Assembly (NCBI GenBank): GCA_010015805.1
Contig: ML978122.1
Coordinates: 1,212,453 to 1,276,452 of the forward strand
DNA: 64,000 nt
Direction of reading: 5' to 3'
Source of the DNA: Rhizodiscina lignyota
Lineage: Eukaryota
Shown: positions 61,588-64,000 of the stretch, piece by piece
How the letters are laid out: each line of letters begins with the position of its first letter
Numbering within the stretch: the stretch's first letter is position 1
Notes under the pieces: generated by a model
Told to the model about the DNA's origin: nothing
The model's database searches: none
The model's input: only the letters and a program-made list of their open reading frames with translations
Program-made: the position numbers and the translations under genes

Positions 61588-62531
61588 GGGCGTCTTCGTC
61601 CAAGTGTTACTTGCAACGTATCTGTGCAGACTCAATCACGGAGACAGCCTTTCAAAGCGGTGGCATACTCTTGTGGTTGGTGCGAGCTTTGGAAATCATT
61701 GTATATAGCTGGAGGTGTTTTTAACGTGCTGGCCAGCACTAAAGCTTTCTTTCCGTGGAGGGCTGCCTAGCATTCTAAGGCCTGCGCTGGCCTACTTGAT
61801 GTTTAAGTATGTGTGGGAATTGTTTGACTCCATCATTCCTAGTGAGAGAGTATGGCTAAACTGAAATTGCACAACCAGCAAATGGAGATGTGATTAAAAT
61901 TTAGACCCTTATACAACTGAAGAGCTTCAAGATTCACCTTGTATCCGTCTAGGAGCTGGTAATATTGTAGGATTACCAAAGATATGTCATCATTGGCGGA
62001 AGGGGTACCCCATACTGAGGAAAGCGTCCTCCACAGAGAGGTAATCAGTCCTGTGCATGACCAGAAAGTTCGATGAACTATATTTACTATATCTGTCAGG
62101 TGCTCTGATGGTGTAGAGTCATAACAATCAATGGCGTGCTCTTACTGTTAGGCAAACAGTGGCGCTTCCCGCACACAACAAGTGGCGTTGCTGCCAAGTT
62201 TCATGGGTCGTTGTTACAGAGCTCCAGGCAAGCAACACCAAGTTTTACGAAACACAACACTCCCGCTTATATACCCTTCTCCAACCTTTTCTGCACTTCT
62301 GCAACCATTCACCTGCCGTTCTGCACCCGCTACAGCTTTGAGAACACGTTTTCGTCGCGACACACCGAGCCTCCGCCAACTCCGCGCGCTTTACTGTGAC
62401 GAGGCAACAGGTACAGCCACATCGGGCTCTCTGTTGCTACACTAGCCATTTACAAAGTTTGAGGAGGAGCAGGCAAGCTGGGGAAGAGAAAGCTTTCAGG
62501 AGCGGATCTAAATGGTCCATCGAAGAAAGCC

Positions 62532-64000
62532 ATGACCGTGAGTGAAGATTCCCTTTGTGACAACGTACCGTCACTGTATGTCACGTCATGAACGCTGCCC
62601 ACTGAGCTCCGTGGCAAGCTATAAAGCGCTTACCGCCCTCCAACGACCACCATCATTCTTGCAACTTGTACTAAGATACTACGTTTTGCGTTTAGGATCA
62701 GAAAATGCAAATCGACGACCCTGCTGCAGCTGCGGCGCAGCTAAAAAATGGCAATGCTGAGATCGACGAGGGCCTCTATAGCCGACAGCTCTATGTCCTT
62801 GGACATGAGGCCATGAAGCGTATGGGCTCTTCGAATATCCTCGTTGTCGGCCTTCGCGGCCTAGGTGTCGAAATCGCAAAGAACATCGCCCTGGCTGGGG
62901 TCAAGTCCCTCACCCTCTTCGACCCCACGCCTGCAGCGATTTCGGACCTTTCTTCACAGTTCTTCCTACACCCTGAAGATGTTGGTAAACCTCGAGCTAG
63001 CGTCACTGTACCTCGAGTATCCGAACTGAACCCATACACGCCCGTTATCGAGTATGCCGCTACCGACCTGTTGACCGACCTCTCTCACCTCAAGCAATTC
63101 CAAGTAGTCGTTCTTACAGACACCCCGCTCAAGACGCAAGTGGCTATCGCGGACTACTGTCACAATAACGGCATATACGTTGTAATCGCGGATACATTTG
63201 GTCTGTTTGGCTGCATCTTCACGGATTTCGGGAAGAACTTCACTGTCGGCGATCCGACTGGGGAGAACCCCAATACTGGTATCGTTGCAGGCATAGACAC
63301 AGATGGCCTGGTATCTGCGCTTGATGAGACACGCCACGGGCTGGAGGATGGTGATTATGTCACTTTCTCCGAAGTTGAGGGCATGGAGGCTCTCAACGAT
63401 GGCACGCCCCGCAAGATCACGGTCAAGGGACCGTATACTTTCAGCATCGGTGATGTGTCTGGGCTCGGCACATATAAGCGTGGTGGTCTGTACACGCAGG
63501 TTAAGATGCCGAAGATCCTCGACTTCGAGCCTCTTAGCCAGCAGCTTAAGAATCCGACAACCCTGGTGTCCGATTTTGCCAAATTCGATCGACCGCAACA
63601 GTTGCATGTTGGTTTCCAGGCCCTGCACATTTTTGCTGAGCAAATTGGTGCCTTCCCGCGACCGCACAATGACGAAGATGCCGCTGCAGTATTTAAGATT
63701 GCACAAGGCTTAGCAGGCGAGGGCGACGAGAAGGTCGAGCTTGACGAGAAGGTTATTCGCGAACTCAGCTATCAAGCTCGTGGCGATTTGAGTCCGATGG
63801 CTGCATTCTTCGGTGGCTTGGCAGCGCAAGAGGTGTTGAAGTCCGTTTCTGGAAAGTTCCACCCAATCGTACAGTGGCTCTACTTTGACTCCCTTGAGTC
63901 GTTGCCTACATCGATAAGCCGAACAGAAGCGCTTTGTCAGCCACTGAATACGCGATACGACGGCCAAATCGTAGTCTTTGGCAAGGAGTACCAGGACAAG
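62532..64000 (+). CDS. UBA1: Ubiquitin-activating enzyme E1 (5' part, runs off the window); intron 62538-62695
   Basis: MT|[72 protein letters not shown]. Confidence 0.96.

Follow-up and report, generated by a model that had tools for sequence, protein, structure and literature searches.

The UBA1 gene of the fungus Rhizodiscina lignyota, which encodes the ubiquitin-activating enzyme (E1), begins near the end of the stretch analyzed here, 64,000 nucleotides from contig ML978122.1 (assembly GCA_010015805.1, positions 1,212,453 to 1,276,452 of the forward strand), hereafter referred to as the window. We suggest that the UBA1 mRNA carries two main in-frame start codons: a CUG that would add an 18-residue N-terminal extension, likely to be a nuclear import signal, and the AUG that gives the annotated enzyme. 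We estimate the probability of this reading at about 0.65. CUG initiation of the extension is well supported, because the peptide, the start codon and its context are conserved, the region has a coding signature and no AUG lies upstream. The conserved non-AUG start is a known mechanism, of which fungal UBA1 is a new instance.

The original prediction, made from the window sequence, was that the frame upstream of ATG 62532 is open back to TGA 62460, that CTG 62478 lies in this frame in a strong context (A at −3, G at +4), and that translation from this codon gives (M)GKRKLSGADLNGPSKKA-MT, in which KRK and KK are separated by ten residues (KRK-x10-KK). The window sequence and its translation bear out all of these points. 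TGA 62460–62462, CTG 62478–62480 and ATG 62532–62534 share one frame, open from 62463, and the CTG is flanked by G, C and A at −6, −4 and −3 and by G at +4 (gca ggc aag CTG ggg). An open stretch of 23 codons would arise in about 1 in 3 random cases ((61/64)^23), and near-cognate codons occur frequently; the arrangement is therefore not beyond chance in the window, and its significance comes only from conservation in relatives. The identity of the gene is clear: exon 2 reads DQKMQIDD... and is a 100% match to the window's own protein model P0001 (1032 aa, starting MTDQKMQIDD, with E1 Pfam domains). The named proteins closest to P0001 are ubiquitin-activating enzymes from Dothideomycetes (80–82% identity), and the PDB matches of the window protein are UBA1 chains.

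Comparison of UBA1 5′ regions

The relatives are metagenome contigs, classed by best match to named proteins. Scanning these contigs with an alignment of UBA1 N-terminal regions yielded 80 loci, in which the extension was sought by anchoring on LYSRQLY, by a motif search of the upstream 900 nt in three frames, and then with a profile built from the matches, together with inspection of the misses. The motif search gave 30 rows with the peptide, corresponding to 29 loci and the window, with 4 duplicates among the rows. Diverged copies were added by the profile search and three-frame translations (L004, L005, L007, L011, L014, L015, L022, L038, L040, L041, L043, L060, L073 and L076), identical pairs were collapsed (L018/L019, L020/L063, L032/L047, L048/L049, L041/L042 and L038/L061), and L013, with just 83 nt upstream, was left out. 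The final set comprised 40 distinct UBA1 5′ regions, from 39 metagenome loci and the window; the alignment counts given below cover 26 sequences and the context counts 24.

By best named match, the set spans five classes of Pezizomycotina, Dothideomycetes, Leotiomycetes, Sordariomycetes, Eurotiomycetes and Lecanoromycetes, with, for example, L001 at 94% to Aureobasidium (Dothideomycetes) and L020 at 95.5% to Cadophora (Leotiomycetes). L043, L060 and L073 stand at an equal distance from each of the five (58–68% identity). Loci below about 60% identity (including L016, L037, L066, L074 and L056) have no such extension, or an AUG-started one, and in the more distant loci L021, L023, L024, L057 and L075, from other eukaryotes, UBA1 is AUG-started with an N-terminal basic cluster.

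All 40 sequences have in common the pattern x-[AVG]-K-(start)-G-K-R-[KR]-x-S-(7–11 residues)-[KR][KR]-x-M-[TA]. In 22 of the 26 aligned sequences a GT donor follows directly after M-[TA], as in the window; these include L009, where the frame stays open across it. In L002, L009, L010, L030 and L032, which have no intron here, the extension frame runs unbroken into the ...MQVD...EIDESLYSRQ of UBA1, and the reading frame is thereby fixed. The mean pairwise identities at codon positions 1, 2 and 3 were 0.72, 0.84 and 0.38 for the extension block G-K-R-K-x-S and 0.68, 0.70 and 0.55 for the block x-K-K-x-M-T, alongside 0.89, 0.99 and 0.50 for the UBA1 core. The corresponding values were 0.30, 0.32 and 0.30 for the 30 nt from −39 to −10 upstream, and 0.27 at each position for the intron. 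The conserved G, K, R and S of the extension vary synonymously (Arg as CGC, CGA, AGG, AGA and CGG; Ser as TCC, TCT, TCA and TCG), and the length differences among the aligned sequences are whole codons. The window extension matches that of the nearest locus, L034, at 18 of 21 residues from K (hand count). This comparison shows the extension to be coding sequence under purifying selection at the amino-acid level in the main frame. The original prediction had proposed alignment of UBA1 5′ leaders across the Pezizomycotina, and in this alignment the in-frame CUG, the basic clusters and their spacing are indeed conserved, with synonymous variation of the neighboring residues.

The start codon and its context

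At the start position, CTG was found in 30 of the 40 sequences (the window and 29 loci), ATG in three (L007, L014 and L015), TTG in two (L005 and L069), GTG in two (L043 and L060) and ATT in one (L040), with no near-cognate codon in the remaining two (L030 and L032). In L015, an in-frame TAG stands four codons ahead of the ATG at this position. Elsewhere in the UBA1 open reading frames (ORFs) of the same loci, CTG accounts for 114 of 563 leucine codons (20%); the other leucine of the peptide (KRK-L-S) is encoded by six different codons, and the median third-position identity between loci is 0.40, near saturation. The constraint on the CTG is therefore at the level of the codon rather than simply that of leucine. 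A naive binomial probability for CTG in 23 of 24 sequences is 2e-15, a figure that is illustrative only, since the loci are related.

The context is equally regular, with G at −6 in 24/24 sequences, C at −4 in 19/24, A at −3 in 24/24, A at −2 in 22/24 and G at +4 in 23/24; two of the fixed flanking positions are synonymous or non-coding. Between the nearest upstream in-frame stop (or the end of the locus) and the start position, no in-frame ATG was present in 29 of 30 rows, the exception being L026 (at −129). The nearest in-frame stops lie at −12 (L072), −15 (L002), −18 (window and L076) and −21 (L004 region), and with stops this close the CUG is the only efficient near-cognate codon before the basic cluster. 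By comparison, then, the CUG position behaves as a start codon. Structure-assisted initiation at the CUG was also considered and found unsupported, as none of the folds in the window and nine relatives was significant.

The annotated start, AUG1, is ATG in all 26 aligned sequences; all 26 have a purine at −3 and 21 have C at −1, though the residue encoded there varies. This strong context fits a weak start followed by a strong one, and the order of weak start, both basic clusters and strong start is the layout expected of leaky scanning, with a minor tagged and a major untagged form. In the mechanism we propose, a fraction of scanning ribosomes would initiate at CUG 62478, in its near-optimal context, and produce an isoform 18 residues longer, (M)GKRKLSGADLNGPSKKA-MT..., while the remaining ribosomes would pass it and begin the annotated enzyme at AUG 62532 or, in exon 2, at AUG 62705. 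The extension, with KRK and KK usually 10 residues apart, would act as a bipartite-type nuclear import signal, and the ratio of CUG to AUG initiation would set the amount of nuclear E1, as a fungal counterpart of UBA1a/UBA1b. We infer initiation at the CUG in R. lignyota, a Dothideomycete, as well as leaky scanning and nuclear import.

Leaders and transcript-like contigs

The window has no ATG in any frame between 62206 and 62511. Among the relatives and the window, the nearest upstream ATG in any frame, where one is seen, lies at least 168 nt from the start codon in 21 of 23 cases, the exceptions being L026 (83 nt) and L033 (114 nt); three further loci have no upstream ATG within the 95–346 nt present. 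Between the CUG and AUG1, 25 of the 26 aligned sequences lack an ATG of any frame and the window is the sole exception, with an out-of-frame ATG at 62512 that the original prediction overlooked. This ATG opens an upstream ORF (uORF) of 7 codons, whose TGA (62533–62535) overlaps AUG1 (ccATGAcc), and it may divert ribosomes that have passed the CUG from AUG1 to the in-frame AUG 62705.

Two relatives provide information on the extent of the leader. L009 is a contig of 3525 nt with a single uninterrupted UBA1 ORF of 1080 codons; none of the three introns of L020, a relative with 86% identity, is present, and L009 therefore looks transcript-derived. Its 5′ end lies 222 nt upstream of the CUG, an in-frame stop is found at −90 with no AUG between this stop and the CUG, and its only upstream AUG opens a uORF of 5 codons far upstream of the CUG. 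L009 keeps GTAAGC right after the AUG1 codon pair, translated through in frame. L010 (1–3681) has an uninterrupted UBA1 ORF of 1092 codons and is also transcript-like, with its 5′ end 323 nt upstream of the CUG and a uORF of 6 codons far upstream. The introns absent from L009 and L010 occur in the close relatives L020, L018 and L011. These two contigs argue against an upstream exon bearing an AUG, at least in those relatives.

A second upstream start in relatives

In most relatives, an in-frame ATT (rarely ATC or ATA) is present 4–19 codons upstream of the CTG, in the contexts gcc acc ATT c or aaa ATT c. An ATT with A at −3 was found in 15 of the 26 aligned sequences (17 when L008, with ATC, and L029, with ATA, are counted), and in four more among the diverged copies added later. 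The loci listed with an upstream AUU-type start are L001, L003, L009–L012, L017–L020, L026, L030–L033, L038, L040, L041, L048, L069 and L071. The block around the upstream ATT is better conserved than the spacer that follows it, which is variable in length and unconserved, and the ATT corresponds to a [FNT]-[TK]-I-[PHA]-S motif of extended public models. AUU in the context cccaccAUU is described as a documented fungal start in the available part of PMC7049704.

In the window, the codon in gcc ATT at 62449 lies 29 nt from the CTG and is thus out of frame; it is probably what is left, after a frame shift, of the upstream AUU conserved in the relatives. The CUG is the only candidate start in the window, L002, L052, L072, L073 and L076. 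Conversely, the upstream AUU is probably the sole start in the CUG-less loci L030 and L032.

Nuclear import and known systems

Nuclear import, through a signal of the bipartite type, is the most likely function of the extension, as suggested by its two conserved basic clusters and by the parallel with mammalian UBA1a/UBA1b. In the window, the clusters and linker read KR-K LSGADLNGPS-KK, with the spacing of about 10–12 residues between two clusters that is typical of such signals. The linker after KR[KR] has 10 residues in 18 of the 26 aligned sequences, 11 in five, 9 in two and 13 in one (hand count on the alignment). The original prediction stated that the peptide fits the bipartite nuclear localization signal (NLS) consensus, and this can be retained only in part: the two clusters and the linker of about ten residues stand, whereas the downstream KKAMT contains two basic residues rather than three among five.

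The functional reading draws mainly on analogy with mammalian UBA1a/UBA1b, from which nuclear targeting may reasonably be inferred. Both the human nuclear and cytoplasmic isoforms and the near-cognate initiation in filamentous fungi invoked by the original prediction have a basis in the literature. According to the available passages of PMC4013028 and PMC11441413, mammalian UBA1a (from Met1) is nuclear and UBA1b (from Met41) is cytoplasmic, alternative initiation on one mRNA yields both, and nuclear localization requires the first 11 residues of UBA1a. The fungal arrangement is similar, at the sequence level, in that the same enzyme has two in-frame starts and a basic N-terminal segment in the long form only. 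It differs in the upstream start, which is CUG in the fungi (AUU and CUG in most relatives), with ATG in only 3 of 40 sequences, and in the extension, which has 18 residues rather than 40 and two short clusters rather than one four-residue basic run. The localization of the mammalian forms is experimental; that of the fungal forms is predicted from sequence. The fungal and human basic clusters are probably alike, judging from the cited passages; the alignments to PDB sequences begin at residue 35.

Among fungal precedents, the extension of Neurospora crassa cpc-1 starts at conserved CUG codons (in rare cases UUG) and AUU codons (in rare cases AUC or AUA), as described in the part of PMC5487733 available to us. 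Like the UBA1 extension, that of cpc-1 is found throughout the Pezizomycotina, lacks an in-frame AUG, has near-cognate codons in optimal context and is under purifying selection; unlike the 18-residue, localization-tag-like UBA1 extension, the cpc-1 extensions have about 180 residues and an interplay with uORFs, and in the same passages no targeting role is assigned to them. Non-AUG initiation exposes a cryptic peroxisomal targeting signal (PTS2) in fungal 6-phosphogluconate dehydrogenase (abstract of PMC7214817), and in Cryptococcus the arginyl- and leucyl-tRNA synthetases acquire mitochondrial presequences from AUU or ACG (available passages of PMC7049704). As far as these passages describe them, such cases resemble that proposed for UBA1 in that a weak near-cognate start in a strong context adds a short targeting peptide to a fraction of a cytosolic enzyme. 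They differ in destination, peroxisomes and mitochondria there and, by prediction, the nucleus for the UBA1 extension, and in the protein concerned, an E1 atop the ubiquitin cascade.

Several observations weigh against the import signal or against the part played by the CUG. Under the strict rule for a bipartite NLS, the second cluster has at least three basic residues among its first five, or reads K[KR]x[KR]. The downstream cluster does not reach this level, with two basic residues in the KKAMT of the window and three in only L009, L032 and L033 of the 26 sequences (hand count), and KRK alone does not match the classical monopartite pattern K-[KR]-x-[KR]. The CUG is not universal, since L030 and L032 have no near-cognate codon at its position. 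The upstream AUU could be the main start in most relatives, and conservation of the CUG could partly serve something else. No conserved RNA structure was found downstream of the CUG: folds of the 60–66 nt spanning the start codon and the rest of exon 1 gave z values from −1.24 to +1.46, with 0 of 10 significant. Finally, the window-specific uAUG 62512 shows that the leader is not perfectly clean and complicates the use of ATG 62532.

Alternative explanations

The extension could be translated from the CUG and serve a role other than import, for example as a switch regulated by phosphorylation, as a degron, as a tether to the nucleolus or to chromatin, or as a site where a partner docks. The serine after cluster 1 is conserved in 24 of 26 sequences, with Asp or Glu three residues later (SGAD, SGEE, SNAD, SDGD), and KR[KR]-x-S looks like a basophilic-kinase or CK2-type site; this setting presumably resembles a basophilic-kinase plus CK2-type phosphosite beside an import signal. 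Together with the shortfall from the strict NLS consensus, these features favor another role. However, an NLS with an adjacent phosphosite would be consistent with regulated import, both clusters are conserved at a spacing of 9–13 residues (mode 10) that corresponds to bipartite import geometry, and nuclear localization of mammalian UBA1a requires its homologous N-terminal segment (PMC4013028, available passages). We therefore consider a role other than import to be unlikely, though well worth keeping in mind.

Another explanation is that the window keeps only a relic of the feature seen in relatives, either because the transcription start site (TSS) lies downstream of 62478, leaving the region outside the mature mRNA, or because the CUG is too weak. 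The frame-shifted AUU and the new uAUG 62512 hint at relaxed constraint on the leader. We nevertheless give this explanation only a slight chance, as in the window the frame is unbroken, the CTG stands in a perfect context, both basic clusters are retained and the extension closely matches that of L034; the 275 nt without ATG before the CTG are as expected of a scanned leader, and the transcript-like L009 and L010 begin well upstream of their CUG. A spliced upstream AUG would be a third way to obtain the peptide, with the ORF of ATG 62203 (80 codons) joined from GT 62411 to the cag acceptor at 62472 and so onto ..GKLGKRK. The join would be in frame, the hypothetical intron of 62 nt has a typical fungal size, and in-frame upstream ATGs do occur in a few relatives and models (L026 at −129; P0121, P0122, P0045 and P0133). 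On the other side, the donor, GTACAG, does not have the G usual at position 5, no branch site of the CTRAY type is present, the sequence upstream of −9 is unconserved and without codon periodicity, and both the intron-less L009 (stop at −90, no AUG before the CUG) and L015 (TAG four codons before its ATG) argue against such a source; translation from a spliced AUG appears very improbable. We give hardly any credence to an untranslated leader whose conservation would stem from a splicing enhancer, an RNA structure, a promoter-proximal motif or another element at the DNA or RNA level. The block AAGCTGGGGAA is highly conserved at the nucleotide level, but the three-base periodicity with free third positions, the synonymous variation of K, R, S and G, the whole-codon length changes, the continuity of the frame into UBA1 where the intron is absent and the absence of a significant fold in all 10 sequences are those of a translated segment.

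Gene models and literature

The original prediction also anticipated that annotation restricted to ATG starts would miss the extension, and most named fungal UBA1 models do begin at AUG1 or AUG2. The extension is included, via an upstream ATG, in models from Drepanopeziza (P0142), Lachnellula (P0143), Chlorociboria (P0152), Aspergillus affinis (P0215), A. tanneri (P0216), Usnochroma (P0175) and Recurvomyces (P0122), and it is also present in P0045, P0117, P0121, P0133 and P0209. Upstream of K-L-G, the extended models are mutually unrelated, save for the short [FNT]-[TK]-I-[PHA]-S motif. A region-limited protein search with the extension scored 18 candidates and returned 9, and is thus a weak survey of annotated proteins. 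Among the UBA1 models P0046, P0161, P0164, P0186, P0202, P0152 and P0223, several are fused to neighbors (GST-like or FKBP domains, 1250–1470 aa); others are misnamed, as ‘poly(A)+ RNA transport protein’ or ‘SPS-sensor component ptr3’, and the fungal P0117 is filed under an oak. Public N-termini are therefore unreliable for this gene.

Our literature search recovered the papers on the mammalian isoforms and the fungal non-AUG precedents, and no report of a non-AUG UBA1 isoform in fungi. Neither ubiquitin nor UBA1 is mentioned in the main text of PMC5487733 or PMC7049704, as available to us.

Features of the window

The features discussed above are collected in Table 1. Upstream of them, an ORF on the forward strand (61156–61587) forms an open stretch of 143 aa with hydrophobic segments that ends in ...DWIYHTGQC*. 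It is probably the last exon of a neighboring gene on the same strand, which would leave about 890 nt of intergenic sequence before the CUG.

Table 1. Features at the 5′ end of UBA1 in the window
Feature	Position	Strand	Basis or remark
Presumed 5′ leader	62206..62477	+	No ATG in any frame over 275 nt before the CTG (window ATGs: 62203, then 62512, 62532)
CT-rich tract, possible core-promoter/TSS region (putative)	~62270-62330	+	Within the presumed leader
Near-cognate AUU and 4-codon mini-ORF, gcc ATT tac aaa gtt TGA	62449..62462	+	Its stop is the TGA closing the extension frame
Initiation context and CUG start codon, G(-6) g C(-4) A(-3) A G CTG G G	62472..62483	+	Conservation of context and start position in relatives
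N-terminal extension, 18 codons, (M)GKRKLSGADLNGPSKKA	62478..62531	+	Alignment of 26, codon-position identity, continuity with the main ORF in intron-less loci
Basic cluster 1, KRK	62484-62492	+	In the extension
Conserved Ser	62496-62498	+	In the extension
Basic cluster 2, KK	62523-62528	+	In the extension
Out-of-frame uORF, ATG GTC CAT CGA AGA AAG CCA TGA	62512..62535	+	Window-specific; T at -3, G at +4
AUG1 (annotated start) and ACC, end of exon 1	62532..62537	+	ATG in 26/26; P0001 starts MT-DQKMQIDD
Intron 1, 158 nt; GTGAGT donor at 62538, tACTAAg branch-like site, tttAG acceptor	62538..62695	+	Sequence; acceptor ..tttag/GAT at 62695/62696
UBA1 exon 2, continuing past the window end; second in-frame AUG at 62705 (MQIDD)	62696..64000	+	Match to P0001

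Implications

UBA1 is an essential enzyme at the top of the ubiquitin system; the human isoforms arise from alternative AUGs, and loss of their balance leads to VEXAS. If the CUG-started import signal is confirmed, filamentous fungi would reach the same nuclear/cytoplasmic split via a deeply conserved CUG (plus AUU in most lineages), and an essential housekeeping enzyme would join the short list of conserved non-AUG starts in fungi. Gene models restricted to ATG would then lack a conserved isoform in most of the public models examined. The changes CTG->CTC and CTG->ATG would provide a simple genetic handle on nuclear E1 supply, leaving the enzyme itself untouched, and the capacity for nuclear ubiquitylation may respond to start-codon stringency.

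A broader and more tentative proposal, which we regard as possible but doubtful, is that filamentous ascomycetes swapped the ancestral AUG of a nuclear UBA1a-type E1 for weak starts, an AUU (ACC-AUU-C) and, 4–19 codons downstream, a CUG (G-N-C-A-A-R-CUG-G-G), while keeping the strong cytoplasmic AUG. The window would represent a minimal version of this arrangement, with the CUG alone. The nuclear share of E1 would be set by start-codon stringency (eIF1, eIF1A, eIF5 and eIF2 phosphorylation), such that nuclear ubiquitylation, and with it DNA repair, histone ubiquitylation and nuclear protein quality control, would be coupled to translational stress.

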